A stretch of 53,636 nucleotides of DNA from an uncultured Candidatus Poseidoniales archaeon (GTDB taxonomy: Archaea > Thermoplasmatota > Poseidoniia > Poseidoniales > Thalassarchaeaceae), in NCBI GenBank assembly GCA_964003245.1, contig CAXFIU010000004.1, positions 1 to 53,636 on the forward strand, written 5' to 3'. Below, in pieces: positions 1,904 to 53,250 of the stretch. Every line of letters starts with the position of its first letter. Position 1 is the stretch's first letter. The position numbers were made by a program, and so were the translations under genes. The notes beneath the pieces were generated by a model. That model had not been told where the DNA came from. It saw only the letters and a list, made by a program, of their open reading frames with translations, and made no database searches.

Positions 1904-1941
1904 ATTGAAAAGAGTTGCTATTAGTATTGAGTGTGAGGAAT

Positions 1942-2400: not shown

Positions 2401-2401
2401 G

Positions 2402-16325: not shown

Positions 16326-16382
16326 GAAGAGAGTGTCAATCCGAATGCTCAAATGGAGAGCCCGTGTGGTGAGGATGTTAGC

Positions 16383-16949: not shown

Positions 16950-16958
16950 GGTATCTAA

Positions 16959-36798: not shown

Positions 36799-36902
36799 TT
36801 GTATTCGCCGGAGAGCATTTGAGTCAAGAATGCAACGGATGAGCCCTTCTCAGACCCAAGGGTCTTAACCGGAAGTTAAAGCGAGCGAATTTGAGGGAGA
36901 CT

Positions 36903-37913
36903 ATGGCTCGCATAGGTATTATCGGTTTGGGCAATTGGGGAACTGCACTTGCTAAAGTATGGTGTGATGATGGACACAATGTAATGGGATGGACAATTGA
37001 ACAAGAAGTATATGATTCTATAATGATGGAAAACATTAACAAAAAATATTTACCACATACAAAAATCCCAGATTTACAAGCTACAATGCAAATCGAAGAC
37101 ATTACTACTGACTGTGAGATTATCGTTTTGGCAGTCCCTAGTGGCATCATTCTAAGTGTTGTTGACCAAATTATCCCACATCTTCGACCATCTCATTTGT
37201 TAATTGATTTAGCAAAAGGTTTAGCTCCAGAAGAAGAAGGAGGGTCAGGAATCATATCTAAGGCTATTACAAAAAGATTGAAAGAAGCGAAAAAATCAAA
37301 TTCACTAGTTGTAATGACAGGCCCCACAATAGCTCCAGAAGTTGCTAGAGGTGTTATGACGACCGCCTTAGTTGCCTGTCATGATAGATTGGTGGCCGAG
37401 AAAATTGCTGGAAGGTTGTCGACCAATACATTGGTTCTAACACCTGCTGACGATCCTGAAGGTGCAGAATTGTGGGGGGCATTCAAGAATACTGTTGCAC
37501 TGGCCTGTGGATTAGTTGATGGGCTCAGAAATAGTATTGGAGGAGACAATCTGAAAGCAGCATTAGTTTTAGCTGGATTTAGTGAAGGAATTAGATTATT
37601 GAATGCTATGGGAGCAGAACCTACAACTGCATTCGGACCCGCAGGATTGGGAGATTTATATGTCACAGCCACTAGTCCAAGAAGTAGAAATAGAACTCTG
37701 GGGGAAATGCTAGGTTATGGTAAATCATTAGAGGAAGCACTAGATGAAATGCATATGGTAGCAGAAGGTGTTAGAGCAACGAGAATGTTTGTAAAAATAG
37801 CTCCTAAATTAAATGTCGAGATACCTTTCTTATCCGCATTAAGTCAACTATTAGATGGTGAAATACCAGTTGAAGATGCAGTTCGTTCGATGGTTGCTTC
37901 ATATCAAAATTAA
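36903..37913 (+). CDS. gpsA: NAD(P)H-dependent glycerol-3-phosphate dehydrogenase
   Basis: GLGNWGTALA, LAVPS, LAKG, GPTIAPEV, GAFKN, GLGDLYVT, SRNRTLG and VAEGV. Confidence 0.93.
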   Translation: MARIGIIGLGNWGTALAKVWCDDGHNVMGWTIEQEVYDSIMMENINKKYLPHTKIPDLQATMQIEDITTDCEIIVLAVPSGIILSVVDQIIPHLRPSHLLIDLAKGLAPEEEGGSGIISKAITKRLKEAKKSNSLVVMTGPTIAPEVARGVMTTALVACHDRLVAEKIAGRLSTNTLVLTPADDPEGAELWGAFKNTVALACGLVDGLRNSIGGDNLKAALVLAGFSEGIRLLNAMGAEPTTAFGPAGLGDLYVTATSPRSRNRTLGEMLGYGKSLEEALDEMHMVAEGVRATRMFVKIAPKLNVEIPFLSALSQLLDGEIPVEDAVRSMVASYQN

Positions 37914-37945
37914 CTTAAATCTAACAAATAGTATGAGGAAAAAAA

Positions 37946-38521
37946 ATGAAAAACTCAGGCCATAGATTAGGGGCTTCTGGGACAGATTTAGAGAATACTG
38001 TAGAAGGATTAAGAAAATCAATTAATAATCCAGATAAAAATAAATTCAAATATTGGGAGTTTGATATTAGAGAATCAATTGATGGAATAGTTTTCGTATT
38101 CCATGATGATTTAATCGAATTAAATGGAGAGTTAGTTGAGGTGTCGAAAATGACTTTTGAAGAGATAAAAGAGGCTGGTGAAGCGTTAAAAATATCTATA
38201 CCAACTTTTGAAGAAATAGTTGTTGAATTGAAAGATCGTAAAGAAAGAGTTATGGTAGAAGTAAAAGAAATCTTTTCGGATGAAGCCAGATATGAAATAA
38301 TAAATACAGTATCTCAATTTAAAGATTGGAAAATTATGGCAACACCTGAACGTTTTGAGAAATCTTTTCCAAAAGAATCTAGACCTTATTGGGACAAAGA
38401 GTTTCAAAACTCAGAGATTCAAGTAGTTAGAGTTGGAAGACATAAAATTAATCTCTTTCGGGCATCAAAATCACGTTTAAAATGGTTGATTGCAAAACCG
38501 AAATGGCTGTTCGGTTTCTGA
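37946..38521 (+). CDS. Glycerophosphodiester phosphodiesterase-family protein (short)
   Basis: GHRLG...ENT, EFDIRES, VFHDD, IPTFEE and VEVK. Confidence 0.75.
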   Translation: MKNSGHRLGASGTDLENTVEGLRKSINNPDKNKFKYWEFDIRESIDGIVFVFHDDLIELNGELVEVSKMTFEEIKEAGEALKISIPTFEEIVVELKDRKERVMVEVKEIFSDEARYEIINTVSQFKDWKIMATPERFEKSFPKESRPYWDKEFQNSEIQVVRVGRHKINLFRASKSRLKWLIAKPKWLFGF

Positions 38522-38561: not shown

Positions 38562-38579
38562 ATTTAGGTCACCCTAAAT
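38562..38579. promoter_or_regulatory. Palindromic DtxR/IdeR-like operator, copy 1, adjoining the TATA box of the transferrin-like operon
   Basis: ATTTAGG-TCAC-CCTAAAT, followed by ATTATTATAC about 25 bp before ATG 38610. Confidence 0.75.
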
Positions 38580-38609: not shown

Positions 38610-39656
38610 ATGGATGATGTGACTTTTGCCAACTGGGCAATAAAAAATAAAGCGTTTTTAATGATCGGACTTGTGGTTTCAGCTGCAGCTCTTTACATGG
38701 TTTTTGATGTAAACTATGAAAAATGTGATGATGAAGAAAACTGTCTTGTTGTTGCTTTTGAATTACAAGATAATTATCTATTCTGGGAGAAAAACCCACA
38801 ACATCTGGCAGATAAACTAAGCACACTAACAGGTATGGATGTAGAAATATATGAAGTTTCAAACTCCGCAGCTGCTATCGAGGCTGTAGACAAAGGTCAC
38901 GCTGACCTTGCATTCTTGGATGGGGCAGCAGCATGGTTGGCATGGGAGGTCTATGGGCTAGATGTTTTAGCTGCAGAAACTAAAGCAGATGGACGTATGT
39001 ACTATAATGCAACAGCATGGGTAAAAGCAGATTCTGATATGGCAGAAGCTTACCTTGATGATGATGATTCCACAGATCCATTCGAACTTATGAGAGGAAA
39101 AACATCATGCCATACTGGTTGGCTAAAAAGTGCTGGAATGCTAATACCGATGGGATACTTGATTGATAATGGATATGCAGAAGTTATTGGAGACCCCAAT
39201 GATATTGAATCTCTTAGAGATACTGTCACAACTTTCTTCTCAGATGATTCAAGCATACCGGAAGGAGGTATTTATTCATCTTACAAAGGAGCATTGAGGT
39301 GTTTATCTGATGGAACAGGAGATGTTGCTCTCGTTAAAGACACAGTTATCGATTCATATTGTACTGGAGAAAATCGATATGATTGGTGTTTAGATGTTGA
39401 AGAATACGTAATGCTACCTGCATTTGCACAAGCACCAAGCCACCCAGCAGTTTATAATCCCGAAACAATGGATGAAGAAACCGTAATTATTGTTCAGGAA
39501 GGGTTAGCGAAACTTAGTGATGATTCAGAAGGAAGAGAGATCCTAAAGGAATTACTGAATACTGATAAAATGGTAGTAACTAATGCACAAGATCACTTAG
39601 GAACTTATGGTGCAGCAGTTTCTAGCGTCCCAGGAATACAGGCATATTTTGAATGA
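38610..39656 (+). CDS. Single-lobe transferrin-like ABC substrate-binding protein (PhnD-fold), probable Fe(III) binder
   Basis: ADLAFLDG, YYNATAWVK, RGKTSCHTGWLKSAGMLIP, YSSYKGALRCL, GDVALVK and QAPSH align in order with transferrin lobe motifs. N-terminal TM anchor. Confidence 0.85.
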   Translation: MDDVTFANWAIKNKAFLMIGLVVSAAALYMVFDVNYEKCDDEENCLVVAFELQDNYLFWEKNPQHLADKLSTLTGMDVEIYEVSNSAAAIEAVDKGHADLAFLDGAAAWLAWEVYGLDVLAAETKADGRMYYNATAWVKADSDMAEAYLDDDDSTDPFELMRGKTSCHTGWLKSAGMLIPMGYLIDNGYAEVIGDPNDIESLRDTVTTFFSDDSSIPEGGIYSSYKGALRCLSDGTGDVALVKDTVIDSYCTGENRYDWCLDVEEYVMLPAFAQAPSHPAVYNPETMDEETVIIVQEGLAKLSDDSEGREILKELLNTDKMVVTNAQDHLGTYGAAVSSVPGIQAYFE

Positions 39657-40120
39657 GGAATAATATGTCAGCATCTGGTGAAATTTTAATTTTGTTTGGT
39701 TCGGAAACTGGTAATGCTGAAGAATTGGCTTTTGAGGCTGGTTCCATGGCAAGTAATTATGAATTACAAGCAACTGTAAAAGGAATGGACGAATTAGAAA
39801 TAGATGAAGTTATTTCTTCGAAACGTGTACTTATATTTTGTAGTACTTGGGGAGATGGTGAACAACCCTATAATGCTCAAGATTTATTTGATGGTGTGTC
39901 TGAATTGGATGACGATAGTTTGAGCGGATTACACTTTGCCGTACTAGCTTTAGGAGATACTGCTTTTGACTTATTTTGTGAATCCGGAAAAGAATGGGAC
40001 AATGTTCTCGAAGAAAAAGGAGGAACTAGGGTCAATGATAGGATAGATTGCGACACTGATTATGAAGACGAGGCAGAAGTCTGGATTCCTGCTACACTCG
40101 AAATAATGAAGAATATTTAA
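39653..40120 (+). CDS. Flavodoxin (short-chain, MioC/CysJ-FMN-domain-like)
   Basis: LFGSETGNAE, CSTWGDGE and LGDTAFDLFC. ATGA overlap with the upstream stop (alternative start 39665). Confidence 0.9.
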   Translation: MRNNMSASGEILILFGSETGNAEELAFEAGSMASNYELQATVKGMDELEIDEVISSKRVLIFCSTWGDGEQPYNAQDLFDGVSELDDDSLSGLHFAVLALGDTAFDLFCESGKEWDNVLEEKGGTRVNDRIDCDTDYEDEAEVWIPATLEIMKNI

Positions 40121-40146
40121 AACAAAACTGTCCTGTCATTACAATT

Positions 40147-40977
40147 ATGGAGGAAGAAAAAATCTCAAGAGAATCGAGACATGGTAGTGCGAATAATTCA
40201 AGAGATAGAGAACAAGATTTGCTTTATGATCCCAATGTTGCAACGTCTTCACATGCAGAACAAGCAATAACTCTTGCATCGTCAATGAGTTCGGGAACTC
40301 TTAGTACAATTTCTGTTAAATCTTCAGGGCATCCTTATGGCTCCTTTGTAACATATATAATTCATAGAAATAATCCGATTTTTCTTATTAGTGATTTAGC
40401 AGAACATACTAAAAATTTAGAATCAAATTCGAAAGCGTCGTTGATGATTAGCGAGATTGGAGAGGGAAATCCATTAGCTCTAGGTAGGCTTACAATTGTT
40501 GGAGAGTGTAAAAAAATGCCTCGGGAAAGTTTTGATTTGATGAAGGAGAAATTTGTTGAAAAACATCCAAGTTCTTCATATTATGTAGATTATACTGATT
40601 TCTCTTTCTTTGAATTAAAGGTAGCATCTATAAGATATATTGGAGGCTTTGGAAGGATGTCATGGATTGATGAAGGAGAATGGATAGATGTCAAGCCGGA
40701 CCCATTGATTAGTTCCGCGCAAGATATTATTACACACATGAATGATGATCACTCAGACGCACTTTTATTGTATTGTCAAAATATGAGCAAAGCTGTTGAT
40801 GCTACCGAAGCAGTGATGACAGCTATCGATAGATATGGTTTCGAAATGTCTGCAACTACAGGTCTTGGTCAAAGACCTATTAGACTAGCATTTACAAATG
40901 AGGTTTCTTCACCTGATGAGGCACGTAAAGAATTAGTTACAATGGTCAAAAAAGCTAGGGAACTTTCTAAAAAATAG
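40147..40977 (+). CDS. HugZ/HutZ-like heme-utilization protein (split-barrel PNPOx-like + DUF2470)
   Basis: GHPYGSFV, ISDLAEHTKNL, RLT, DFSFF, RYIGGFGRMSW, then IITHMNDDH and IDRYGF (DUF2470-like). Confidence 0.85.
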   Translation: MEEEKISRESRHGSANNSRDREQDLLYDPNVATSSHAEQAITLASSMSSGTLSTISVKSSGHPYGSFVTYIIHRNNPIFLISDLAEHTKNLESNSKASLMISEIGEGNPLALGRLTIVGECKKMPRESFDLMKEKFVEKHPSSSYYVDYTDFSFFELKVASIRYIGGFGRMSWIDEGEWIDVKPDPLISSAQDIITHMNDDHSDALLLYCQNMSKAVDATEAVMTAIDRYGFEMSATTGLGQRPIRLAFTNEVSSPDEARKELVTMVKKARELSKK

Positions 40978-41038
40978 TAATTATATTAATAACATAAATT
41001 TAATGTTGTTTTAAAATCCGTCAATACCATATAAGAGA

Positions 41039-41052
41039 TTAGGGTCACCTAA
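41039..41052. promoter_or_regulatory. DtxR-like operator, copy 2, upstream of the ABC ATPase/permease pair
   Basis: TTAGG-GTCA-CCTAA within AAGAGATTAGGGTCACCTAAAATAATTATATAC, closely matching the copy 1 context. Confidence 0.72.
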
Positions 41053-41080
41053 AATAATTATATACTCGGGAGGGGACCTG

Positions 41081-41818
41081 TTGGAAAAAGATTTACAACA
41101 AAATGAACCGATTATCCTTCTCAAAGATATGGTAATTGGCTACAGCAAAGAGAAACCTCTGGTTCAAATTCCAAATTTAAAAATTTACCCTGGTGAGATT
41201 GTAGCAATAGTTGGACCCTCTGGAGTTGGTAAATCAACATTAATGAAGACAATTGCGGGATTAGTAGAACCAATTTCTGGATATGCCCAAGTATGCGGCA
41301 AGATAATTCCCGAATCTCCATTAAGAGGGAAATTAGGGTATATTCCACAAGATCTAGGATTAGTTAAACATGCTAGTGTAATTCATAATGTGATGCTGGG
41401 GGCTAATGCAGGGCATAATAAACCGATAATGCCATTTATTCCAATAATTTTACCCTCATTAAAAGTTAAAGAAGAAGCGACTAAATCGATTATTTCCATG
41501 GGCCTCATAGAAAAGATGTATGAGCCGATAAAAAGACTTTCAGGAGGGCAACAAAGAAGAGTTGCAACAGCGAGAACTTTAGCACAGTCACCGGAATTAA
41601 TTATGGCCGATGAATTCCTCAGTGAATTAGATGAAGAGACAATTGCAATGGTAATAGGTCAAGTGATAGAATATATCAAAATCAGTAATGCGGCTCTTCT
41701 TGTTGTTGAACATGATATAGCGCGTGCCAGAATAATGGCAGATAGATTACTAGTTATTGACGACGGTCGCATTAATCCATTCATAACTGAAATAACAGCA
41801 ATGGAGGTAGAAGTTTGA
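41081..41818 (+). CDS. ABC ATPase, PhnC-like
   Basis: GPSGVGKS, GYIPQDLGLV, LSGGQQRRVATAR, DEFLSELD and VEHD. Confidence 0.88.
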   Translation: MEKDLQQNEPIILLKDMVIGYSKEKPLVQIPNLKIYPGEIVAIVGPSGVGKSTLMKTIAGLVEPISGYAQVCGKIIPESPLRGKLGYIPQDLGLVKHASVIHNVMLGANAGHNKPIMPFIPIILPSLKVKEEATKSIISMGLIEKMYEPIKRLSGGQQRRVATARTLAQSPELIMADEFLSELDEETIAMVIGQVIEYIKISNAALLVVEHDIARARIMADRLLVIDDGRINPFITEITAMEVEV

Positions 41819-42729
41819 AAAAAGATGATGTTGTAGAAGTTTCATTATTTGATAGAAGATATTTCTATCCAGTACTTTTCATTTTTATTTTTCTGTTTAC
41901 CATTATTATTTTCAATGGAATGATTAACGACTGGGGGAGACTATCCAATGGGATAGGAGTTTTCAGGACATTCTTATCAGAGGATGTTTTACCTCCAGAT
42001 TGGACTGTATTAGAACCTATGACATATCCTGTATGTACTGTTGAACCAAAAATACTAGATTTTACTTGTTCAAGGGCATGGATAGGAATGATTGAGACTT
42101 TGAAAATTGCATTTGTTGCTACTGTATTCGGGACGATTTTATCACTTCCTATTTCTCTGTTGGCTGCACGCAACTTGAATACAACAGGGGTTTCATATAT
42201 CGCGAGATGTGTACTGGCATCATTCAGAAGTTTTCCTAGCCTTATTTGGGGTATATTCTTTGTTATATTAGTAGGAATAGGCCCTACTGCTGGAGTTTTG
42301 GCAATGACAGTATATACCGTAGGATATCTAGGTAAATTACAATATGAAGCTATAGAAGGAATGAGTAAATCACCTTTGGAAGCATCTGAAGTAATGGGAC
42401 TTACTAAATTAGAAACTGCATTTCAAGTAGTTCTTCCTGAGTCTGCAAATGACCTAATCTCTCAGATAATTTTCATGTTTGAATATAACTTTAGACATGG
42501 TACAGTAATTGGTCTAGTTGGCGCAGGAGGGATTGGATTATATATCGATACTGCCATTAAATATCTACAATATGATAGAGTTATTGCTTACTTAATTATT
42601 ATATTCATAGTAGTTTTGATAATGGATTTTATTTCAATAAAAATTAGAGCTTTGTTTACAGAAGAAGTAGGATACTCACGGCCTAAATGGCTAGAGGTAT
42701 TTTTTCCTGCTTGGATGATTAAAAGATGA
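41815..42729 (+). CDS. ABC permease, PhnE/PtxC-like
   Basis: ETLKIA, RSFPSLIW, GYLGKLQYEAIE and FEYNFRHGTVIGLVGAGGIG. Confidence 0.88.
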   Translation: MKKDDVVEVSLFDRRYFYPVLFIFIFLFTIIIFNGMINDWGRLSNGIGVFRTFLSEDVLPPDWTVLEPMTYPVCTVEPKILDFTCSRAWIGMIETLKIAFVATVFGTILSLPISLLAARNLNTTGVSYIARCVLASFRSFPSLIWGIFFVILVGIGPTAGVLAMTVYTVGYLGKLQYEAIEGMSKSPLEASEVMGLTKLETAFQVVLPESANDLISQIIFMFEYNFRHGTVIGLVGAGGIGLYIDTAIKYLQYDRVIAYLIIIFIVVLIMDFISIKIRALFTEEVGYSRPKWLEVFFPAWMIKR

Positions 42730-42733
42730 AATG

Positions 42734-43924
42734 TCACCGAATAATCCCTATATTTCCGGTCCAGTAAAATACCAATAATTCATCTGCTAACCCCTGTCCG
42801 AATCCAACAATCATTCCACCGCTAGTGCCTACGAAATGATTGACCCATTCGCCATTGATTTCTTTCAATAACCAAATAGAACCGCTACAAAAATCACCAT
42901 AAAGATATCCATTTTGTAATTTTTCTGGCCCCCAATCCATCCAGAATCCTCCGGTAATGGAACAATTGCCATTTCCATGGCCATAAGTAACAACTGGGTA
43001 AGTCAGATCATCATCACTATGGGCATCGTGGTCATCTTCTTCATAACAATCTCCATCCTCGTCAAAATATTGAAAACCTTCTTTTAATGACCAACCAAGA
43101 TTCATCCTTTCAGAAATAGGTACTAGGTTTATCTCTTCCCAACAATTTTGACCGACATCAGCTATCCAGAGTAGATCATTTTCACCCAAAGAAAATCTCC
43201 AAGGATTTCTCAAACCATAATGAAGAATGAATGGATCACCATTAGAATCTTCAAAAACAGGAGATATCGTATTATTTTGATATGTAAAAAGATTAATTGA
43301 ACCAAGTGAATTAGTTATATTCTGACTATTATTTTGTGGATCATTTGCACCTCCACCATCTCCGATACCCCAAAGATATTGATTATCTCCAATATTTAGA
43401 AGATGCCCGCCATTATGATTTCTGTATGGCTGTTGAATTTCTCTCAGAACTGTAATTGTTGAACTATCCATGATTCCATCATCTCCAATAAGTACAGATG
43501 CAAGAATTAGATCAGATGTTGTTGTACCATCACAATCTTCAGACTCAGTAAATGATAACAAAACCGTTTTAGAATTGTTGTAATTCTCATCAAAAGCTAA
43601 TCCTAATAATCCCTGTTCAATATGGCATGTAGATACAAATGATGTTAAATTGGCCACATCATTCATTGAAGACCCGTCCCATGATTTAACATTCCCGTTT
43701 AGATAGATAATCCATAAATTACCATTTTCAGGATTAATAACTGAGTGATGAGGCGTTTCAGAACCTTCCAAAAATATGCCACATTCAAGATTATATTCTG
43801 GCGAAAGGTCACAATTAAAGTCAGTAGGTTCCGGCCATTCGAAACCTCCCTCAGAGTCATTAAAAATACAGCCAGTAAATGCTGTACAGAGCAATAAAGT
43901 CATCAAAATTGATAAAAATCTCAT
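42734..43924 (-). CDS. PQQ-dependent glucose/sorbosone dehydrogenase-family lipoprotein
   Basis: Lipobox AFTGC, EQGLLGLAF, QPYRNHNGG, GDGG, YGLRNPWRFS, DVGQNCWEEIN, SITGG and YLYGDFCSG. Confidence 0.85.
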   Translation of the reverse strand: MRFLSILMTLLLCTAFTGCIFNDSEGGFEWPEPTDFNCDLSPEYNLECGIFLEGSETPHHSVINPENGNLWIIYLNGNVKSWDGSSMNDVANLTSFVSTCHIEQGLLGLAFDENYNNSKTVLLSFTESEDCDGTTTSDLILASVLIGDDGIMDSSTITVLREIQQPYRNHNGGHLLNIGDNQYLWGIGDGGGANDPQNNSQNITNSLGSINLFTYQNNTISPVFEDSNGDPFILHYGLRNPWRFSLGENDLLWIADVGQNCWEEINLVPISERMNLGWSLKEGFQYFDEDGDCYEEDDHDAHSDDDLTYPVVTYGHGNGNCSITGGFWMDWGPEKLQNGYLYGDFCSGSIWLLKEINGEWVNHFVGTSGGMIVGFGQGLADELLVFYWTGNIGIIR

Positions 43925-43945: not shown

Positions 43946-44755
43946 TTACTTACTAGTAATTTCATCTTTGACAATAACTCGTAAAGAATCAGATCCTCCG
44001 GGCCAGAAAACAGCATTATCCATTATTTCCGCGTCCACTGAAAATACCTCAGCAATATTATCTTTAGTTAATACCTCTCTAGGAGTTCCTGATGCAAATA
44101 TTTTACCATTATGAAGAAGTAAAATCCTATCTGCGAAACGAGCTGCTATGTTAATATCATGTATGGCAATTAAAGCAGATTTTTCAGCATCTTTATTGGA
44201 TATAATTTTTCTTAAACTTTTCATTATTTCTAATTGATTTTTAAGATCCAAGTCACTTGTTGGTTCGTCCATTAGTAAAAGTGATGAGTCTTGAGCAATC
44301 GCTTTGGCAATAATTACTCTTTGTCTTTCACCACCAGATAGTTGATCAAATTTTCTGAATGAAAAATCTTCTAGACCAAGTGATCTTAATGTTGAACTAA
44401 CTTTGTCACGATCTTCTTCACTAATTCTCCAGCTAATATGAGGGCGTCTTCCTAGAAGTACAACGTCAAAAACATCCATAGAGAAACTTGTTCTTACTGA
44501 CTGAGGAACATATGAAACTTTTTTAGACAAATCAATTAAAGATAGCCCATTAACATCTTCTTCTAATAGATTAATACTACCTGAGTCTGATTTAAGTATG
44601 CGATTAATGCATTTTAACAATGTAGATTTTCCAGCCCCATTAACTCCTAAAACGGCTACTAATTCATTAGGAGAAATATTTACATTGATATCTCTTAGAA
44701 CATGGTTATTTCCCCAACTGAAATTTAAATCTTTAATCTCAAGGATTTTACTCAA
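43946..44755 (-). CDS. Iron-chelate/cobalamin ABC ATPase (FecE/BtuD-like)
   Basis: GVNGAGKS, YVPQ, LSGGERQRV, DEPTSDLD and HDINIAARFAD. Confidence 0.9.
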   Translation of the reverse strand: MSKILEIKDLNFSWGNNHVLRDINVNISPNELVAVLGVNGAGKSTLLKCINRILKSDSGSINLLEEDVNGLSLIDLSKKVSYVPQSVRTSFSMDVFDVVLLGRRPHISWRISEEDRDKVSSTLRSLGLEDFSFRKFDQLSGGERQRVIIAKAIAQDSSLLLMDEPTSDLDLKNQLEIMKSLRKIISNKDAEKSALIAIHDINIAARFADRILLLHNGKIFASGTPREVLTKDNIAEVFSVDAEIMDNAVFWPGGSDSLRVIVKDEITSK

Positions 44756-45795
44756 CTATTCACCCCCCTATTTTTCAATAACAGATACATGAAAAATGGA
44801 CCTCCGATAATTGAAAGCATTATTCCTACAGGAATAATTATTGGAGCAAACAACGTTCGACCAAGTGTGTCTGCAAAAAGTGTCAATAATGAGCCAAAGA
44901 CTGCTGAACAAGGAATTAATTTACGATAATCATTACCTACAATTAAACGGCTCATGTGAGGTGCGGCCAAACCAACAAATCCGATTAAACCTGTAAATGC
45001 TATAACAATAGATGTCAGAAATGCTGAAAGAATTAATATTCTCTTCCTAGTAGTGCTAGGATCAACCCCCGTAGAAATTGCAAAGTCATCACCTCCTAAA
45101 GACAAGGCATTAAGATCCCATGACCATTTCATAGCAGATGGCATTAAACCTATCAAAGCAACAGATATCCAGAGGGTTTGAATTAAAGTAGGTCTAGATA
45201 AACTACCAAAAGACCAATGTGCTAATTGAGATAATTGTGCATCAGTAGCAAAATATTGCATTGTAGAAACTATTGCACCAGCTATGAAAGTAATAGCAAT
45301 TCCAACTAGAATGTAAGATTCAGCAGAAATAGAACGCATATTGCCTAATTGAATGATTATTCCTACTACAATTAAGGAAAATAGAAATGCATTTGCAACA
45401 ATTGCAATCTCGGAATTCGAAACAATAGAGAAACCGAGTACAATTGCAAATGCTGCTCCAAGAGCAGCACCTGAAGCAACTCCAAGAGTTAAGGGGGAAA
45501 CTAATGGATTTCCTAGGCAACCTTGCATTAAAGCGCCCGCAGTAGCCAATGCTGCGCCGCCAACTATTGCCATCAAGATTCTAGGAAAACGAAGTTCCCA
45601 AATAATAGCGGACTGTAAATCGTTAGAGTTTTCTAATCCGAGAATTATCTTCAATGTAGTTAACATATCTAAATTTGATGATGAACCTGATCCCATTGCA
45701 AAGATTGCTAATAAAAATGTAAGACTAACTAGAAGTAGAATTAATATAATCTGAAACTTTGAGTTTTCAATGTGCTTCTCAGAAATAGAATCCAT
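44752..45795 (-). CDS. FecCD/BtuC-family ABC permease
   Basis: RFPRILMA, GNPLVSPLTLGVASGA, GLIGFVGLAAPH, ADTLGR, PVG and GGPFF. Confidence 0.92.
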   Translation of the reverse strand: MDSISEKHIENSKFQIILILLLVSLTFLLAIFAMGSGSSSNLDMLTTLKIILGLENSNDLQSAIIWELRFPRILMAIVGGAALATAGALMQGCLGNPLVSPLTLGVASGAALGAAFAIVLGFSIVSNSEIAIVANAFLFSLIVVGIIIQLGNMRSISAESYILVGIAITFIAGAIVSTMQYFATDAQLSQLAHWSFGSLSRPTLIQTLWISVALIGLMPSAMKWSWDLNALSLGGDDFAISTGVDPSTTRKRILILSAFLTSIVIAFTGLIGFVGLAAPHMSRLIVGNDYRKLIPCSAVFGSLLTLFADTLGRTLFAPIIIPVGIMLSIIGGPFFMYLLLKNRGVNS

Positions 45796-45799
45796 TAAA

Positions 45800-46897
45800 T
45801 CAACTGCCTAGTGACTTACATACAAACTTTCCTTGCATCTCAACATCATGATATTTTACAAAATAATCAGAAATAATTGATTCTGCATCTAAATCCTCAA
45901 ATAAGTCTGGATGTAATATCTTAGCTAATGTTGGAAGCCCATGAATCATCATTGGTCCAGCAAATTCACCTGACATGATAATCATACGGTTATCTATTAC
46001 AGCGTTAAGACTATCGAAACCCGGCCTAGTTTCAATAAAACTCATATGAGTCCCACACTGATCATCAATATCGTAGGAATTGAAACCGATATCGAATGTA
46101 ATACCATCAAACATAATTACATCAGGATTAGCATCTAAAATTGCTTCCATATCAACATGTGTTGTATGTCCAGGTAAGTCTTTGAAAATGTTATTTCCTC
46201 CTGCTCTTTCTATAATATCCGTCCATTGAGATGTCCCCGTTAGAACAACCGGATCCCTAGTCAAGGAAGCATGATGTTCCATAACAATTTGTGGCCGATG
46301 AGATTCATTAAGTCCGGAAATACGATCTGAAACCTCAGATTCAATATAATCAAATTCTTCGAAAAGAATATCTGCCTCATTTTGTTTTCCAAAAAGTTCG
46401 GCAATAACTGATATCTCATATCTTAGATAGTCATATTTGTAGAAATCTAAGGCAAGTACTTTGATTCCAACTGGTTCTAATTTTTCTCTTATAGCATTGG
46501 TGTCAACCATTCCATTTGTGGCAAAAACAATGTAAACCTCAGGACGGCAATCAAGTAGAGCCTCAAAATCAATTTCCGAGTGGGCTGATTGCTGGATGAT
46601 TGGCGTATCGGCATATTCAGGCCAAATAATTTCGTCATAGAAGTCCCCAGATACACCAGCTACGACTGAAGAGTTTACATCCAACATTCGCATTACAGTA
46701 GCGGCATAAGTATTGGTCATAGCGACACGTTCAGGTGAAGAATCAAAATTATGAATTACTCCATTTGAATCAACCACTTGTATGTTTGAATCAGAAGGTG
46801 TAACAGAATCATCTTGTAGAGAATACTGCCAAACTCCTATTGAACAAAAACATACTAATAATACTTGAAAAATAGCAATATTACGATTATTAAACAT
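45800..46897 (-). CDS. Helical-backbone substrate-binding protein (BtuF/FhuD/HemV-like)
   Basis: VVDSNG, PERV, DFEALLDCRPEV, AGGNNIF, VDMEAILDANPDVI, AVIDNR and LAKILHPDLF. ATG 46897 preferred over TTG 46939. Confidence 0.85.
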   Translation of the reverse strand: MFNNRNIAIFQVLLVCFCSIGVWQYSLQDDSVTPSDSNIQVVDSNGVIHNFDSSPERVAMTNTYAATVMRMLDVNSSVVAGVSGDFYDEIIWPEYADTPIIQQSAHSEIDFEALLDCRPEVYIVFATNGMVDTNAIREKLEPVGIKVLALDFYKYDYLRYEISVIAELFGKQNEADILFEEFDYIESEVSDRISGLNESHRPQIVMEHHASLTRDPVVLTGTSQWTDIIERAGGNNIFKDLPGHTTHVDMEAILDANPDVIMFDGITFDIGFNSYDIDDQCGTHMSFIETRPGFDSLNAVIDNRMIIMSGEFAGPMMIHGLPTLAKILHPDLFEDLDAESIISDYFVKYHDVEMQGKFVCKSLGS

Positions 46898-46901
46898 AAA
46901 A

Positions 46902-49241
46902 TCAATCCTCTCGATTCCTATAAGAATAAATTGTAACAAGTGATAATAACGAAACCATGAATATCAAAATATTACTCATTGTAAAATAATCTGATTCTGA
47001 TTCTTCAATTATATTAACGAAAATGGAATCTGAGAAATCTGAAACCTTTCCATTAGATAGTCCGACCTGTATTCTAATTCGATTTTGACCAATGTTTAAT
47101 TCATCTAAAGAAGTGAAATTTTCAGAACCATTATACATCTCAATAACTACTCCATCAGAATCTTCAACTATTAGTGAGTACCATGCTGCATCCATAGTAG
47201 AACTCCATGATACGAAAACATCTGTCCCTTCATTCTGTTGAGAGGTGAACAAATTAAAGACTAATGGCGGTTCAACAATATGAAATACATCTAAACTAAT
47301 AATTTCGCCGACGACCGTATGCCCTGAAGGCATAATTGCATTGATTTGATATTGATAGGTATTATCAATCTGATTTTGAATTAAATAAGAATTCTCATCC
47401 CCTTGATAAATAAGTACATCGTTTTCAAATAATTGGTATGAATCTGCCCCCTGGAAATTTGCCCAATCAATAAAATATTCATTTGAAGATATATCTACTT
47501 CTTCAGTCAAGAATTGGGGAGTCATTGGAACCTCAAAAGACTGTAATTCATAAATAACTTTTTCAGAATGAGAACCGGGTAACTGATCGATGATTTTTAC
47601 CCAATTACGCACTGATTCATTGTACCATAATTCCCAAGAAACAATACCATCTATCATATCTGTAATTACTATATGTTTTGTTAAGAAAGTTCCAGCCGCT
47701 GTAGTAATTAGTACATCTTGATTAATTTCAACTGTATTTGTAGTATCATCATATCCATTTGGATGGCCTGGAACTCCAATGATATTTGTTCTATTAAAAT
47801 GTAAATTAATATCATCATCTGATTCTAACAAACTTACCGATTGACCAGAATTATCTGTAAAATTCCATCCCAAAATTCCTTCTTGAAAATAAGATGAGGA
47901 TGATGGGGAATCAACCCAATAAGTATGAACGGTTAAGAGATTTTCACTATCAATCCATCGATATGATTGTTCGCCCTCTTCATGATATTCATTATTATAT
48001 CTAGTCAGAAATGTGGTTCTTTCACGACCAAATGAGTCAATACTAATTTCTGAACCTATGGCAGTAAAAGTAACATTGTGCATCCCATATGATGACTCTG
48101 GAGTATAAAAGACGCCATAATCCCATGACATACCTGCTGACCAAAGAGAATCTACATTATTATCAGGAATGACTATTATCATCAAAGATGCAGGATTAAG
48201 ATTGGTACCATTATTATTAGTAGCTTCAATGGTAAATTCAAAGGTTCCAACTTCAGAAGGAGTGAAGTCAAAAGTGGTTGAACTACCTCTGTAAACTAAC
48301 TCACCGTTAGAATATAGTGAATAAAAATCAGTATAATTTCCACCCTCCCAATCAATACTTAGAGAGGATATGGGAATAACTTGTAGTTGTGTTACAAAAG
48401 AAACATTCTCGGGAAATTCTAGATTTACAGTTGATGAAAGGTTCATCCATCCTTCTCCACCAGAAATTACAGATGTAATCGGATCTAGGATACTAATACC
48501 TTCTAACGTTGCAATAAAATTCTGCGTAGAACCAATAGGTAGATTTTGAAGCAAATAGAAACCATCTGAGTTAGTTACGGCATTTTTTTCTCCGTTACTA
48601 ACTACAACTCCTTTCATTGGTAGTCCTTCTTCATCTACAATAAATCCATACTTACTATTCATACCTTTATTCAAGTCAAAATCATTCGGAGAAGATGCTG
48701 AAAGTTTGAAATGCACATATTGTGTTGAAGAAATATCATCTTCATGAATTCCTCGGATTGTAAAATACTGCCCTATATCTAGAGTTCCGAATTCTGCCCT
48801 GCCGTCTTGAATATCTTGGATTTCGTTTAATTCAACTAGTTCAACATGAGATGATGAAATATCAGGAATATGAACTCCCTGTTCATCGAACATCTCTACA
48901 GTAATCCAATTCTCACCCACATGCCAATCTAATTGCATATCTGAATTAAATACCATTTTTCTGTAAGCCACAGTATGACCGTTATTCATGAAATAAGCTC
49001 TGACTGTATGTTCACCAGGAGTTATTCCTGAAAAAACATAAGAACCATTTTCAGACCAAGTAGATGTCATTGAATCTACCTTAATAGAAGTAGAGTTAGC
49101 GAAATTTCCATCTTCAGCAAATACATTCCCCGATAGTGTGAAAAGTTCCTGATCTGATGAATCATCTGCAGAAACTGCTATTGAAGAAAATATAGAAGAT
49201 ACAAACACTAGTGTTAGTATCAAAGCATTGAGTCTCTTCAT
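46902..49241 (-). CDS. Large membrane-anchored surface protein with beta-sandwich (carboxypeptidase-regulatory-like/FN3-like) domains
   Basis: Signal peptide, NGSYVFSGITPGEH, TNSDGFYLLQNL, FN3-like W...Y...Y repeats and C-terminal TM. Ends 4 bp before the binding-protein gene. Confidence 0.7.
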   Translation of the reverse strand: MKRLNALILTLVFVSSIFSSIAVSADDSSDQELFTLSGNVFAEDGNFANSTSIKVDSMTSTWSENGSYVFSGITPGEHTVRAYFMNNGHTVAYRKMVFNSDMQLDWHVGENWITVEMFDEQGVHIPDISSSHVELVELNEIQDIQDGRAEFGTLDIGQYFTIRGIHEDDISSTQYVHFKLSASSPNDFDLNKGMNSKYGFIVDEEGLPMKGVVVSNGEKNAVTNSDGFYLLQNLPIGSTQNFIATLEGISILDPITSVISGGEGWMNLSSTVNLEFPENVSFVTQLQVIPISSLSIDWEGGNYTDFYSLYSNGELVYRGSSTTFDFTPSEVGTFEFTIEATNNNGTNLNPASLMIIVIPDNNVDSLWSAGMSWDYGVFYTPESSYGMHNVTFTAIGSEISIDSFGRERTTFLTRYNNEYHEEGEQSYRWIDSENLLTVHTYWVDSPSSSSYFQEGILGWNFTDNSGQSVSLLESDDDINLHFNRTNIIGVPGHPNGYDDTTNTVEINQDVLITTAAGTFLTKHIVITDMIDGIVSWELWYNESVRNWVKIIDQLPGSHSEKVIYELQSFEVPMTPQFLTEEVDISSNEYFIDWANFQGADSYQLFENDVLIYQGDENSYLIQNQIDNTYQYQINAIMPSGHTVVGEIISLDVFHIVEPPLVFNLFTSQQNEGTDVFVSWSSTMDAAWYSLIVEDSDGVVIEMYNGSENFTSLDELNIGQNRIRIQVGLSNGKVSDFSDSIFVNIIEESESDYFTMSNILIFMVSLLSLVTIYSYRNRED

Positions 49242-49446: not shown

Positions 49447-51096
49447 TTATTGGAGTGTTCCAATATCTTCAGCTGTAATTCCTAGCATATCCCAAGCAGG
49501 TTGGAGATGTGCACGAACAGCAGCCTGGTAGTCAGTTCCTGCTACTGGTACGTTATTGAAATCATAGATTCCATTAATTCCAGTTGTTCCGAAACCATCG
49601 AAGTGGGTAAATGCACCACACTCTGCTTCAGCCATATCTGCATCAGTTGCATGAGATACCATATTGTAGCATCCTGTAAACATTGTAGCACCATAATTCT
49701 CATACCAACCATAAGATTCGCATGTAGTCTGATCTACTGCTGTATCCCATGAGTGAGATACACTGTTGTAGCAACCATCTGCGCCAGGTGTTGTAACATA
49801 ATCTTCTATCCACATGTAAGATGTACATGTTGCATTATCATCGCTAGATGTTTCATGAGATTGCATGTTGTAGCATCCTGTGAAAGTAGTTGAACCCCAT
49901 GATGCATTATCATAGTAATCCCAGGACTCACAGATTGATTGATTCCATGAAGCATTCATACCATGAGACACAGAATTGTAGCAACCTGTGTAAGTTTGCT
50001 CTCCGTAATTCTCCAAGAACATGTATGCTTCACACGATGCTTGATCAGAATCTGAGGAAGTTGCATGTATATTCATATTGTAGCAAATATCTGAACCGTC
50101 GCCCATATCATAATCTGTCATGTACATGTACCCTGCACATTCATCAGCTGCTGCTGCACTAACAGTCATTGTAACGCTGTTGTAACAATCATCACCAGGT
50201 GATGGGTTTGCTTCAGCAATATATTTCTCGATTACTCTCCAGAAAGAATATCCCTCTGCTTGATGTGTTTGAGCTTTTTCTACAGTATCGTCAGTATTCA
50301 TCTTGTGAGCATAACGAATTGTTGCTTGTGAGTAAATTATTACTAATTGCTTTACTACCTCATCTCTTGCAGCTGTTGCTCCAACGAGATCTTCTGCTTG
50401 TAGTGCAGCTAGACCATCATTCATTGCTTGGAGGATCGCTGCATTCGCTATAGCAGTACCATCTGCATTTGCAGTAGCATAGTTACCTGCTCTCTTATCT
50501 CCAGTAGCGTATGGAGAGCATGATGCATACTCATCGAGACCGTGGTAAAATGCCCATCCTTCATCCCATGCGTGCTGTGCATCATCAGTACCAAAGTTTC
50601 CGGCTTCAGCCTTGACAATTGCAGCGTTTAATTCATGGATTGCATATGCAACCATTATTTGATTTTGAACTCCTTTCTCAACTGCTTGCTCACGAACACT
50701 ATCTGAAGCACCCTCAAACATTCCAGTGCCATCTAATGCGGACATCAAGTAGTCATCTAGAGGGGATTCGGTACCATAGAATGTATCTAATCCGTGTTTC
50801 TTACCTGTTGCATCAGCAAATCCTTGTAATGTTCTGAATGATCCATCACTCTTTTCTGCATGCTTACCATCCATGTAAATTTCTTTTACACCATCCCAAT
50901 CATGAGCCTCTGCAAGATCTTTGATATCGCAAACGTCTTCTACTAGCATTCTGTGATTATCCACATTTGAAGCATATTCATATCCGCCATCTGCTTCGTC
51001 AAAGTTACTCTCATCGTCGTCCGATAAACAACCTGCAAAAGCCGCAGCTAACATACTCAGCGTCATCATTATAGCAATTATTTTCTTATTTTTCAT
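49447..51096 (-). CDS. FEA1/IrpA-like (low-iron-inducible) lipoprotein with inserted Cys-rich repeats
   Basis: Lipobox AFAGC, YEYASNVDNH, IYMDGKH, RTLQGF, YAIHEL, HAWDEGWAFYHG, KRAGNYAT, YSQATIRYA and QAEGYSFWRVI. Confidence 0.75.
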   Translation of the reverse strand: MKNKKIIAIMMTLSMLAAAFAGCLSDDDESNFDEADGGYEYASNVDNHRMLVEDVCDIKDLAEAHDWDGVKEIYMDGKHAEKSDGSFRTLQGFADATGKKHGLDTFYGTESPLDDYLMSALDGTGMFEGASDSVREQAVEKGVQNQIMVAYAIHELNAAIVKAEAGNFGTDDAQHAWDEGWAFYHGLDEYASCSPYATGDKRAGNYATANADGTAIANAAILQAMNDGLAALQAEDLVGATAARDEVVKQLVIIYSQATIRYAHKMNTDDTVEKAQTHQAEGYSFWRVIEKYIAEANPSPGDDCYNSVTMTVSAAAADECAGYMYMTDYDMGDGSDICYNMNIHATSSDSDQASCEAYMFLENYGEQTYTGCYNSVSHGMNASWNQSICESWDYYDNASWGSTTFTGCYNMQSHETSSDDNATCTSYMWIEDYVTTPGADGCYNSVSHSWDTAVDQTTCESYGWYENYGATMFTGCYNMVSHATDADMAEAECGAFTHFDGFGTTGINGIYDFNNVPVAGTDYQAAVRAHLQPAWDMLGITAEDIGTLQ

Positions 51097-51113: not shown

Positions 51114-51129
51114 TTTAGGTCTCCCTAAA
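51114..51129. promoter_or_regulatory. DtxR-like operator, copy 3, upstream of the FEA1-like gene (degenerate copy 4 at 51159-51172)
   Basis: TTTAGG-TCTC-CCTAAA lies 17 bp from the ATG. TTAGG-TTAT-TCAAA at 51159-51172 reads on the minus strand ...CCTAATATTGATATAC, like copies 1 and 2. Confidence 0.72.
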
Positions 51130-51243: not shown

Positions 51244-53250
51244 GTGAGTTATTTTAGTCGAAGCAAGATTCTGGCATCAATCTGTGTAATCCTTATGTTT
51301 TCAATGATTGTTCCTTTGGAAAATAAAGAAACAATGCTTAATGAAAAAATGGTAGAAAGATATCAATTAGGAGGTGGTGGTAGTCTTGAGCAAAGATGTA
51401 GTTCAATCACTTTCGAAGCCATTCTACCCTATACTCATGCGCATTTCGATATTGTAGTTAATGAAGATTGGAATTCGGCTGAAGTTGAGGCTAGAGCATG
51501 GATAAATGGGACAAGTGTCGATTTATTAAGGGAAAAACTTGATTCTTATTTAGAAGAATTATACCCTAGTGGAGGAGATGGTTGGATCTCAACAGATGAA
51601 AAATCAGCAGTTGAAGCGGTAGCTTCTGAATGTGTTGAATATGCTATGACTAGGATTGGTCTGAGAGAATCAACCCCTCATAGAGGAGGAGTTGGACTTG
51701 ATTGGAAAAACGCCACCTGGCAGAATGATGGCGTTATAATTGAAGAATGGAATCTAGTTCCATCCAACCATGCCGATATAAGAGACTGTACCGCAATTGG
51801 TTCTAGCAATGATTGTGTAGAAGTGCCCGTATTCCCTAACTCTGAGAGAGATTGCAATACCCTTATTGAAACTTCAGAGAATGTCGACGAGTGTAGGCTA
51901 GAACTATGGATGAATGCCACAATGGTAATTCCTAGTATTGATGAGGGAGAAGAATTTACTTTAGCATTTAATGCTTCGAATATGACTAATGCGGTTTTGG
52001 ATTTTACATTACCGAGTAACCCTGATCTAAGAGTAGACATGTGGGAAGAATGTGAAGGAAGAGATGTTGAATTTGAACCATCAACTCACGAAGATGCCCC
52101 ACTGAGAGGTGCTTGTATCGGAGATGGATCATCAACCTATATTTTCGAAAACATTGAAGATGAAAGTGTCAAATTCACTCTAATTCCACATAGAAGTATA
52201 GATTTTTGGCCTAGTGGTGAAGATATTTTTGTAGATTTCACCACGGCACCTATCCCAATCAACAACCCTCCTTCGTGGACAGAAAATGCTCCATTGAATG
52301 AAAGTTGGTTGCCTTCATTGGAGAGTGGAGAAAATATTTGGGCTGATTGGAATAGTATTTCATCATGGTTTGATGATGAGAAGCCCATCTCACAATTAGA
52401 AATAAATTGCAATTCAGAACCTTCGGCAAATATCTATCAGTTATCTGATAAGTCTTTTTCTGGAATAATTAATTATGGTCAGGACATACAAGTAGAATGT
52501 GAGGCCGTTGATGACTTGGGGCAAAGTTCAGGAATTAGGATTTGGAACTTAGGAGTTCCTATTTTTCTAACGACATCATCAGAATCTTTAGTCAGTCCAC
52601 ATCCAGTAGATATACAATTTAGTGAAAATTGGCCTGAACTAACATTAGAATATGCATTCACTCAATCTCAAAATATTAATTCTGCAAATATTGAATCTAT
52701 GACTATTTCTTCTAATCAAACAATATTAATTAATTCCAATGGGATGATTCCAGGGTTAGTGGATTTATGGATAGGAATAAATGGTAACAATTACATATAT
52801 CCTACAGAAAGAATTTTTCAACTAGGTATAACTAAAGAAAGTTCGCCACCTATGATTAGCGTTACAGAATATGGCTGGGAAATAGATATCTGGCAAGCTC
52901 AAGGACAATTTAGTGACCCAGATGGAGAAGATGTTGACTTTTCTCTATCTATAGATGGATTATCTGCAGGTAGTATTTCAGTATCTGGAAATTCATGGAG
53001 TACACCAATGATAAATTTTGGATTATGGGACGAAGGTGAACATGAAGTAAAAATTATTGGTTGCGATATATCGGCCAAATGTAATGAAGTAATTATTATG
53101 GTAAATAATAGTCATTTATTTGAAGACGCAACATCTCTTCCTTTAATTCCAGATGATGATTCAGGAACTGGATTATTACCGGGTTTCAGTATGTTCTTGA
53201 CTATCTTCGCATTAACTATCGGTCTCATATACTCAACCCGTCGCGATTAG
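51244..53250 (+). CDS. Secreted Cys/Trp-rich surface protein with PGF-CTERM-like archaeosortase signal
   Basis: Signal peptide, NNPPSW and SDPDGEDV cadherin/Ig-like motifs, C-terminus LLPGF + TM + RRD. Confidence 0.72.
   Translation: MSYFSRSKILASICVILMFSMIVPLENKETMLNEKMVERYQLGGGGSLEQRCSSITFEAILPYTHAHFDIVVNEDWNSAEVEARAWINGTSVDLLREKLDSYLEELYPSGGDGWISTDEKSAVEAVASECVEYAMTRIGLRESTPHRGGVGLDWKNATWQNDGVIIEEWNLVPSNHADIRDCTAIGSSNDCVEVPVFPNSERDCNTLIETSENVDECRLELWMNATMVIPSIDEGEEFTLAFNASNMTNAVLDFTLPSNPDLRVDMWEECEGRDVEFEPSTHEDAPLRGACIGDGSSTYIFENIEDESVKFTLIPHRSIDFWPSGEDIFVDFTTAPIPINNPPSWTENAPLNESWLPSLESGENIWADWNSISSWFDDEKPISQLEINCNSEPSANIYQLSDKSFSGIINYGQDIQVECEAVDDLGQSSGIRIWNLGVPIFLTTSSESLVSPHPVDIQFSENWPELTLEYAFTQSQNINSANIESMTISSNQTILINSNGMIPGLVDLWIGINGNNYIYPTERIFQLGITKESSPPMISVTEYGWEIDIWQAQGQFSDPDGEDVDFSLSIDGLSAGSISVSGNSWSTPMINFGLWDEGEHEVKIIGCDISAKCNEVIIMVNNSHLFEDATSLPLIPDDDSGTGLLPGFSMFLTIFALTIGLIYSTRRD

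Follow-up and report, generated by a model that had tools for sequence, protein, structure and literature searches.

We looked at a stretch of DNA of 53,636 nucleotides, called here the window, from an uncultured Candidatus Poseidoniales archaeon of the Thalassarchaeaceae (assembly GCA_964003245.1, contig CAXFIU010000004.1), and in particular at a transport locus at positions 38610-42729. Taken together, the results argue that this locus probably encodes an iron-repressed Fe(III) importer of the ATP-binding cassette (ABC) type with a transferrin-type binding protein, a system that is labelled 'phosphonate transport' across the Marine Group II (MGII) archaea. An earlier note on this DNA had paired a transferrin-lobe protein with a PhnC/PhnE-type transporter for iron and, judged from sequence, this core idea was upheld in all the computational tests that we ran. 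The five co-directional genes named in that note were found as open reading frames (ORFs) of the + strand, and the two operator-bearing promoters that it had read there each carry an exact palindrome, called here an iron box:

38610-39656, + strand: binding-protein gene (348 aa), a single-lobe transferrin homologue and predicted substrate-binding protein, with an N-terminal membrane anchor at about residues 15-32
39653-40120, + strand: short-chain flavodoxin gene (155 aa), PF00258 at 1.6e-28; its start overlaps the stop of the binding-protein gene
40147-40977, + strand: HOZ/HugZ-like haem-binding protein gene (276 aa), a CREG/PNPOx split barrel and then DUF2470
41081-41818, + strand: ABC ATPase gene, distantly PhnC-like (245 aa, TTG start), with Walker A GPSGVGKST, signature LSGGQQ, Walker B ADEFLSELD and the His of the H-loop
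41815-42729, + strand: PhnE-family permease gene (304 aa), TIGR01097, with an extra extracellular loop that bears a conserved Cys pair
38564-38577, strand not applicable: iron box 1, TTAGGTCACCCTAA, 33 nt before the ATG of the binding-protein gene, next to an A/T-rich TATA-like stretch
41039-41052, strand not applicable: iron box 2, TTAGGGTCACCTAA, 29 nt before the TTG start of the ATPase gene, next to an A/T-rich TATA-like stretch

Binding protein, transporter genes and iron boxes

When the binding protein was compared with Pfam, it matched both PF12974 (Phosphonate-bd, 2.4e-21) and PF00405 (Transferrin, 4.1e-19), the latter with 69.4 bits, above the gathering cut-off of 20.3. A search of solved structures returned 94 PDB matches (E <= 0.01), the best 60 of which were all members of the transferrin family, with ovotransferrin on top (1.7e-25). 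With a profile built from 63 members of the family, ovotransferrin was found at 4.2e-53, and the best 60 matches were transferrins, saxiphilin and inhibitor of carbonic anhydrase. In the alignment, D104, Y132, Y225 and H278 stand opposite D60, Y92, Y191 and H250 of the ovotransferrin N-lobe, which we take to be its iron ligands, and T169 and K173 stand opposite T117 and R121, which we take to be its carbonate (anion) site. In transferrins, the combination of an Asp-Tyr-Tyr-His set with an anion site is the signature of Fe(III). We then followed these positions through an alignment of 89 sequences, made of the window protein and those 88 of 120 listed homologues whose length is 300-400 aa. D104, T169, Y225 and H278 were kept in 89/89, Y132 in 88/89 and K173 in 84/89, with Gly in the other five. 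Cys167 and Cys231 (SCHTG...RCL) were invariant, and the motifs GKTSCHTGWLKSAG, YKGALRCL and APSHP are near-identical to transferrin motifs. Moreover, among the proteins from 20 fetched loci, every one-lobe protein adjoining ABC genes keeps the ligand set. The protein has one lobe of 348 aa and not two homologous lobes in one chain, as is typical of the transferrin family. These results indicate that the binding protein is, by homology, a single-lobe transferrin homologue. Its cargo would be Fe(III), and Thr169 and Lys173 suggest that the synergistic anion is probably carbonate or, less surely, phosphate.

The binding protein travels with a transporter. Of 151 sampled genomes of the order, 131 had the binding protein and 129 had PhnE; the two occurred together in 127, and 18 had neither and 6 had one alone, counts that are descriptive only since relatives are not independent. 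The genes for the binding protein, the ATPase and the permease were adjacent in 17 of the 20 fetched loci of the order. At the level of the phylum, the family occurs in 46/251 Thermoplasmatota genomes and, outside the order, in a few families, and the full loci from these other families, of 62-70% GC, have the three genes as the same operon in 6/6 cases. The core that is conserved across related loci consists of a box with the binding-protein gene and a box with the ATPase and permease genes. As a conserved unit, the five-gene set of the earlier note did not hold up, because, apart from the window, only one relative, 97% identical (locus L068, 1/80 related loci), has flavodoxin and HOZ-like genes inserted between those for the binding protein and the ATPase.

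The permease and the ATPase both carry marks of their own. Relative to E. coli PhnE, the permease has an insertion of about 19 residues after the PPDW motif, PVCTVEPKILDFTC, the extra loop with a Cys pair that had been described from the window, and all but one of 46 distinct permeases retain the pair. The ATPase motif DEFLSELD is likewise present as reported, but the claim that it is atypical was not borne out. Each of the group's 52 distinct ATPases has the form ADE[F/C]L[S/G]ELD, where E. coli PhnC has ADEPIASLD. We considered whether the motif marks a defective ATPase and rejected this, since the Walker B Asp and the catalytic Glu are intact and the motif is a signature of the whole family.

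We looked next to the genes for signs of control. Exact TTAGG-N4-CCTAA palindromes occur three times in the window (38564-38577, 41039-41052 and 51115-51128). When up to one mismatch was allowed, the window had 5 matches against 1.58 expected, and 0/100 shuffles reached 5. For the survey of relatives, we took the best 80 related loci, 78 of which had at least 80 nt of upstream flank, and sought the exact box within 300 nt. It was found upstream of the binding-protein gene in 77/78, mostly 45-56 nt before the start, in the conserved form T-TTAGG-N4-CCTAA-A followed by a T-rich TATA-like stretch. In many related loci, the box also stands before the ATPase-permease pair and next to the genes of Fea1-family proteins and of 668-aa-type surface proteins. 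Among the six high-GC Thermoplasmatota loci, three have an exact box before the binding-protein gene; as an A/T-rich box in genomes of 62-70% GC, it is unlikely to occur there by chance.

The boxes have a known counterpart. In the accessible text of a Haloferax volcanii ChIP-seq study (PMC10783522), TroR, a DtxR-family repressor of iron-uptake genes in iron-replete cells, has the motif TTTAGGC-NNN-CCTAAAANAN. Structural work on IdeR proposes, in the part of the report available (PMC8464063), to redefine the IdeR/DtxR consensus as TTAGGNNNNCCTAA, of 14 bp. The window boxes equal this consensus and match the TroR motif. The genome from which the window comes has two DtxR-family genes, in one of which both PF01325 and PF02742 were confirmed. 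Both promoters thus carry an iron box of the DtxR/IdeR/TroR type and, by analogy with Haloferax TroR and with IdeR, this box would be bound in an iron-dependent manner.

Besides the three in the window, the exact box was found at three other sites of the genome, six in all: ahead of a ferredoxin gene, ahead of an M28 peptidase gene and within a small ORF. The ferredoxin-gene box (C2:44515-44528) lies about 55 nt before the gene of a 90-aa 2x[4Fe-4S] ferredoxin, and that at C81:2461-2474 lies 32 nt before the M28-family peptidase gene. Together with the flavodoxin of the locus, the ferredoxin-gene box hints at an iron-dependent ferredoxin/flavodoxin switch. One-mismatch boxes near gene starts were dropped as candidates, the genes downstream of them being unrelated (gyrB, dehydroquinase, HAD hydrolase and amidohydrolase).

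RNA-library contigs (at least 95% identity, 3 studies) were found on the binding-protein, flavodoxin, HOZ-like and Fea1-like genes, and one of them, 38943-39717, bridges the junction of the binding-protein and flavodoxin genes. We read these contigs as presence only; uncovered stretches and depth figures carry no weight.

The phosphonate label and the cargo

Public records name the homologues 'phosphonate ABC transporter', PhnD/PhnE or 'PhnD/SsuA/transferrin family', and phosphonate transport is given as a core trait of MGII in the accessible text of Tully 2019 (PMC6336850). The locus could accordingly be read as an importer of the PhnCDE type, for phosphonate, phosphite or phosphate, whose PhnD is divergent, and several of our own observations weigh on that side, against an importer of iron. 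The permease scores 229 bits with the PhnE equivalog TIGR01097, above the cut-off of 216.7, and its residues 92-281 align with E. coli PhnE at about 40% identity. For the ATPase, the best NCBIfam model is PhnC (TIGR02315), at 135.6 bits and so below its cut-off of 266.1; its identity to E. coli PhnC is 28%. Directly upstream stands a gene with a GDPD domain, a domain of phosphodiester metabolism. A PstS-type binding protein was sought in the genome and not found; without this locus, the archaeon would thus lack an ABC route for phosphorus compounds, which leaves room for a role in phosphorus uptake. The search for PhnX-type proteins in the order, which gave 0/151, was run without a positive control, and PhnW, PhnA, PhnY/Z and PtxD were not searched for. 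The counts of boxes add to this. Genome-wide, exact boxes numbered 6 against 4 for a reversed-pattern control, which is no excess, and one-mismatch sites numbered 48 against 106 for the reversed pattern, which is no enrichment; the evidence from the boxes is therefore their position and conservation (77/78) and not their raw count. Finally, the RNA data are contigs that speak neither to transcript level nor to a response to iron, and DNA carry-over is possible.

The binding protein itself speaks against the phosphonate reading. It scored 35 bits with the PhnD equivalog TIGR03431 (cut-off 261.1) and 47 bits with TIGR01098 (cut-off 112.05), below the threshold of both models, and BLASTP against E. 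coli PhnD gave no significant similarity (E 0.11). Used as a query, it matched only 335 of 1.84 billion representative proteins (E <= 0.001), which means that the huge canonical PhnD family is mostly beyond its reach. Its match to PF12974 was rejected as a sign of phosphonate binding: representatives of the classical transferrin type match PF12974 too, at 1e-15 to 1e-24 (one of them with 642 bits on PF00405), and the match is therefore uninformative. By contrast, the complete set of transferrin Fe ligands is near-invariant in the family. Catabolic genes were sought as well. PhnJ was found in 0/151 genomes of the order, by a search that detected the E. coli positive control. In the window's own genome, which is 92.5% complete, no PhnJ and no PhnX above cut-off were found; its one PF12974 match and its one PhnE above cut-off are the genes of this locus, and a canonical PhnD elsewhere, which by the earlier note would have undone the iron proposal, was not found. 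The window was said to lack genes of phosphonate catabolism, and Pfam indeed gave no such domain among the 46 ORFs scanned. The genome encodes a PiT/PHO4 phosphate carrier. The promoters, moreover, carry a DtxR/TroR-type iron box that is common to them and to a Fea1-family gene. Altogether, we consider a PhnCDE-type importer improbable, and the 'phosphonate transport' label in MGII genomes is likely an annotation inherited from the family of the permease. The suspicion that 'phosphonate uptake' is a misannotation in MGII thus gains ground from ligand conservation, from the missing canonical PhnD and C-P lyase, from the iron box and from synteny.

As for other iron routes, no SBP_bac_6 protein (PF13343; FutA/FbpA-type) was found in the same genome, and its FeoB_N matches lie in open frames of 369-475 aa that resemble generic GTPases.

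The remaining adverse points concern the cargo and the partner of the binding protein. The protein might bind another hard cation or an iron chelate, or it might not feed this ABC transporter at all and serve instead as a surface iron store, concentrator or sensor working with Fea1-like and GSDH-like proteins. The assignment of the Fe ligands comes from alignment, and the anion-site Arg of ovotransferrin is Lys here, as it also is in some representatives of the classical transferrin type. The profile matches include saxiphilin and inhibitor of carbonic anhydrase, which do not bind iron. Gene order in close relatives points the same way. In the other Thalassarchaeaceae-type loci, the one-lobe orthologue is mostly followed by a GSDH-like gene and stands apart from the ABC genes, which come after a two-lobe paralogue of about 700 aa, often downstream of a Fea1-like gene. 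These Thalassarchaeaceae-type two-lobe proteins have lost the ligands of the C-lobe, and their N-lobe often has Phe for Tyr225 and Asp or Asn for His278, so that the protein next to the ABC genes is one with partly lost ligands. In contrast, in Poseidoniaceae-type loci and in 6/6 loci of other families, a one-lobe gene with full ligands directly precedes the ATPase and permease genes, and the Poseidoniaceae-type two-lobe proteins keep all ligands in both lobes (two-lobe examples are L064:8102-10168, L065:8184-10253, L066:7834-9918 and L048:175-2265). The binding protein and PhnE are, as counted above, mostly present together or missing together. In the genome studied here, no two-lobe gene was found; the one-lobe gene heads the cluster, and its product is the only PF12974-type protein encoded. 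The residues of the site, in addition, are those of the transferrin signature for Fe(III). We therefore hold another cargo or another partner to be unlikely, and keep Fe(III) import through the adjoining transporter as the probable function.

The best 80 related loci all have the look of MGII. Three loci among them with an MGII-like gene order and with binding proteins 53-79% identical (L073, L111 and L147) come from metagenome-assembled genomes titled Rhodobacteraceae, Pedosphaera and Salinimicrobium. These bacterial titles probably reflect binning contamination.

The surrounding island and a proposed mechanism

The window is A/T-rich (GC 0.34-0.42), and further genes with a link to iron lie beyond the permease gene:

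51115-51128, strand not applicable: iron box 3, TTAGGTCTCCCTAA, flanked by two divergent genes, the Fea1-like one and that of the 668-aa surface protein
42734-43924, - strand: GSDH-like beta-propeller lipoprotein gene, PF07995 at 5.4e-18, the last gene of the minus-strand iron cluster
43946-46939, - strand: FecCD-type ABC importer (siderophore, haem or B12-type substrates), with ATPase 43946-44755, permease 44752-45795 and Peripla_BP_2 binding protein 45800-46939
49447-51096, - strand: Fea1-family lipoprotein gene, PF07692 at 5.8e-25, with a C-terminal Cys-rich repeat region
51244-53250, + strand: gene of a Cys-rich surface protein of 668 aa that has a PGF-CTERM-like tail and matches no Pfam family

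From box 3, the minus strand runs through the Fea1-like gene, a 779-aa surface protein, the FecCD-type importer and the GSDH-like lipoprotein, with short gaps and some overlaps. With this run, the window between 38.5 and 53.3 kb reads as one iron-acquisition island. Fea1 is a family of low-iron-inducible algal proteins and of the diatom ISIP2a (phytotransferrin). In the order, it was present in 30/151 genomes, often directly upstream of a two-lobe transferrin-like gene and ABC genes. The C-terminal Cys-rich repeats of the Fea1-like lipoprotein of 49447-51096 form a run of the type GCYN..SH...C. The 668-aa protein of 51244-53250 has an N-terminal hydrophobic segment. Across the order, its relatives (24-72% identity) are conserved in the neighbourhood of transferrin-like and Fea1-like genes. 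The GSDH-like lipoprotein is a beta-propeller of the PQQ type. Its gene directly follows the one-lobe gene in most Thalassarchaeaceae-type loci, and in the window it has the opposite orientation and is the last gene of the FecCD-type operon. Directly upstream of the locus, 36891-38521 (+) holds a bacterial-type NAD-dependent glycerol-3-phosphate dehydrogenase gene and the short GDPD-domain gene (191 aa), a pair that is outside the box-controlled unit and is kept in relatives. Further away, two more groups of genes lie at 1190-3399 and 16353-20719 (+): a cluster for riboflavin synthesis (DHBP synthase, riboflavin synthase and lumazine synthase) and, close to XdhC and MobA-like genes, those of a molybdopterin dehydrogenase that has three subunits and is of the xanthine/CO dehydrogenase type.

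The product of the third gene was looked at separately, as it had been called HugZ-like. The best solved relative is 5bnc, the haem-binding MSMEG_6519 (1.7e-43), followed by PA4388 and by plant and PtHOZ1-type HOZ proteins, and the protein also matches the CREG beta-barrel model. With the HugZ model TIGR04109 it reached 82.8 bits against a cut-off of 240, and its domain order is opposite to that of HugZ. The name is thus fair as far as haem-binding and HOZ relatives go; as an assignment to HugZ proper, it failed.

If the locus encodes the proposed importer, it would work as follows. When iron is plentiful, an Fe(II)-loaded repressor of the DtxR/TroR type would sit on the 14-bp boxes beside the TATA elements and shut both promoters; when iron is low, the genes would be transcribed. 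On the outer side of the membrane, the binding protein would close its two half-domains on Fe(III), held by Asp104, Tyr132, Tyr225 and His278 and by the synergistic anion, which in turn would be held by Thr169, Lys173 and the N-terminus of the following helix. By analogy, the loaded binding protein may then dock on a homodimer of the single PhnE-type permease, with the loop of the Cys pair as a candidate element for docking or hand-over. A dimer of the ATPase would drive release and translocation, as gene linkage and the general mechanism of type I ABC importers suggest. The flavodoxin may stand in for ferredoxin at low iron and is a possible reductant. The HOZ-type protein might free iron from haem, perhaps from haem imported by the neighbouring FecCD-type system.

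Lineage, significance and known systems

We built a quick IQ-TREE phylogeny (LG+G4, SH-aLRT only) of 74 hand-chosen lobes with a short search, rooted on E. coli PhnD, a single outgroup on a long branch; the representatives in it are without taxon labels. In this tree, proteins of the SCHTG type split from the rest with a support of 100. The MGII proteins formed a clade of 29 rows (SH-aLRT 98), and a separate clade (99) was made of representatives of the classical transferrin type (16 rows, support 100) and of unlabelled multi-lobe proteins. The MGII clade also takes in both lobes, N and C, of the archaeal two-lobe proteins, and the duplication of the archaeal lobe would therefore be independent of the eukaryotic one, a conclusion that we draw tentatively from these sequences.

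The tree also bears on where the binding protein comes from. Transferrins are otherwise known from eukaryotes, and MGII live among eukaryotic plankton, so one could imagine that MGII recently acquired a transferrin lobe by transfer from a eukaryote and that its gene was parked by an unrelated transporter. The separation of the MGII clade from the classical transferrin-type clade, and the position of the two archaeal lobes inside the former, speak against this. So do the same operon and box in high-GC Thermoplasmatota families and the archaeal-type anchors of the family members, an N-terminal helix or a lipobox-like Cys. In the Atlas, the clusters with PF00405 + PF12974 that are nearest to the query were 100% Archaea. 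We regard such a transfer as very improbable. A wider proposal, which we put forward as possible rather than probable, is that MGII and a few other Thermoplasmatota hold a prokaryotic sister lineage of the eukaryotic transferrins, one that is still in the ancestral role of an ABC binding protein, takes unchelated Fe(III), together with carbonate, at the cell surface, has made two-lobe forms independently and belongs to one TroR-type regulon with a Fea1/ISIP2a-family protein.

Two further groups of transferrin-like representatives were observed. Four deeper-branching PhnD-like one-lobe representatives (P0228, P0235, P0249 and P0213) are without the SCHTG cysteine and have Gly at the Lys/Arg position; their ligand columns are still Asp, Tyr, Thr, Tyr and His, so that more of the 'PhnD-like' binding proteins may, by sequence, be metal binders. 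The other group is made of giant many-lobed transferrin-like proteins, P0124 (1894 aa), P0136, P0145 (2619 aa) and P0154 (2661 aa), the first of which has the full ligand set in four lobes.

In the literature searched, mostly without subscription journals, we found no account of the MGII system as an iron importer or of archaeal transferrin homologues. If our reading is true, the 'phosphonate transport' core trait of MGII, which rank among the most abundant archaea in surface seawater, would be iron uptake; with iron as the cargo, metabolic reconstructions and meta-omic read-outs of 'phosphonate uptake' for these archaea would be wrong. The acquisition of iron by MGII has hardly been described so far, and it would gain a candidate system with a testable regulon. 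The exact 14-bp box can serve as a simple means to predict iron regulons in Thermoplasmatota that are uncultured. With carbonate as the anion, the iron uptake of heterotrophic archaea would depend on the carbonate chemistry and the pH of seawater, as reported for diatom phytotransferrin. A single lobe with the full ligand set beside ABC genes would also be the intermediate type expected between PhnD-type proteins and eukaryotic transferrins, and the archaeal two-lobe forms would be an independent replay of the lobe duplication.

Compared with eukaryotic transferrins (ovotransferrin, serum transferrin, lactoferrin and melanotransferrin), the binding protein shares homology over the whole lobe, the positions of the Asp, Tyr, Tyr and His, the Thr of the anion site, the SAG helix start after it and the cysteines of SCHTG and RCL. 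It differs in having one lobe of 348 aa instead of two (about 680 aa), in being membrane-anchored on an archaeal cell, in the Lys for the Arg of ovotransferrin and in forming a clade of its own; ABC genes stand alongside it, whereas the eukaryotic proteins work through a receptor and endocytosis. The diatom ISIP2a, of the Fea1 family, is alike in that it is marine, induced by low iron and made for the capture of unchelated Fe(III) at the surface, and here a Fea1-family gene lies behind the same box. ISIP2a is endocytosed, however, while the ABC transporter is the predicted route in MGII. In the accessible text of a study of ISIP2a (PMC7972479), this protein associates with a CREG-fold protein; the parallel with our third gene may be a coincidence, this gene being of the HOZ/HugZ type and confined, in this position, to the species studied here.

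With PhnCDE of E. coli and others, the locus has in common the permease family and the pattern of three single genes, for a binding protein, an ATPase and a permease. What sets it apart is a binding protein that is not PhnD, an ATPase far below the PhnC cut-off, the loop with the Cys pair, the lack of phn catabolic genes among those found and an iron box in place of Pho-type control. Bacterial ferric importers (FbpABC, FutABC and HitABC) are closer in their predicted working, namely a two-domain protein that takes unchelated Fe(III) with a synergistic anion, a type I importer and iron-dependent repression. Their binding proteins are of another family, no SBP_bac_6 protein having been found in our genome. 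The iron ligands of FbpA are Tyr-Tyr-His-Glu, and FbpB is a fused double permease, as opposed to the single gene of the PhnE subfamily here. The earlier note had placed FbpABC and FutABC in a different permease class. This was overstated: FbpB and FutB are also type I permeases of the BPD_transp_1 family (PF00528), and the difference holds at the level of the subfamily.

Lastly, with the regulons of TroR in Haloferax volcanii and of IdeR/DtxR, the locus shares the operator TTTAGG-N4-CCTAAA including its spacing, the presence of DtxR-family genes and iron-uptake targets, which are predicted here. The position of the operator differs. In Haloferax, about 100 nt separate the TroR motif from the start codon downstream of it; in the loci related to ours, the box lies mostly 45-56 nt upstream and directly before the TATA-like stretch. 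As a whole, a ferric ABC importer that depends on a substrate-binding protein would be a system of a known kind, in which the lineage of the binding protein is new and the permease family is borrowed.

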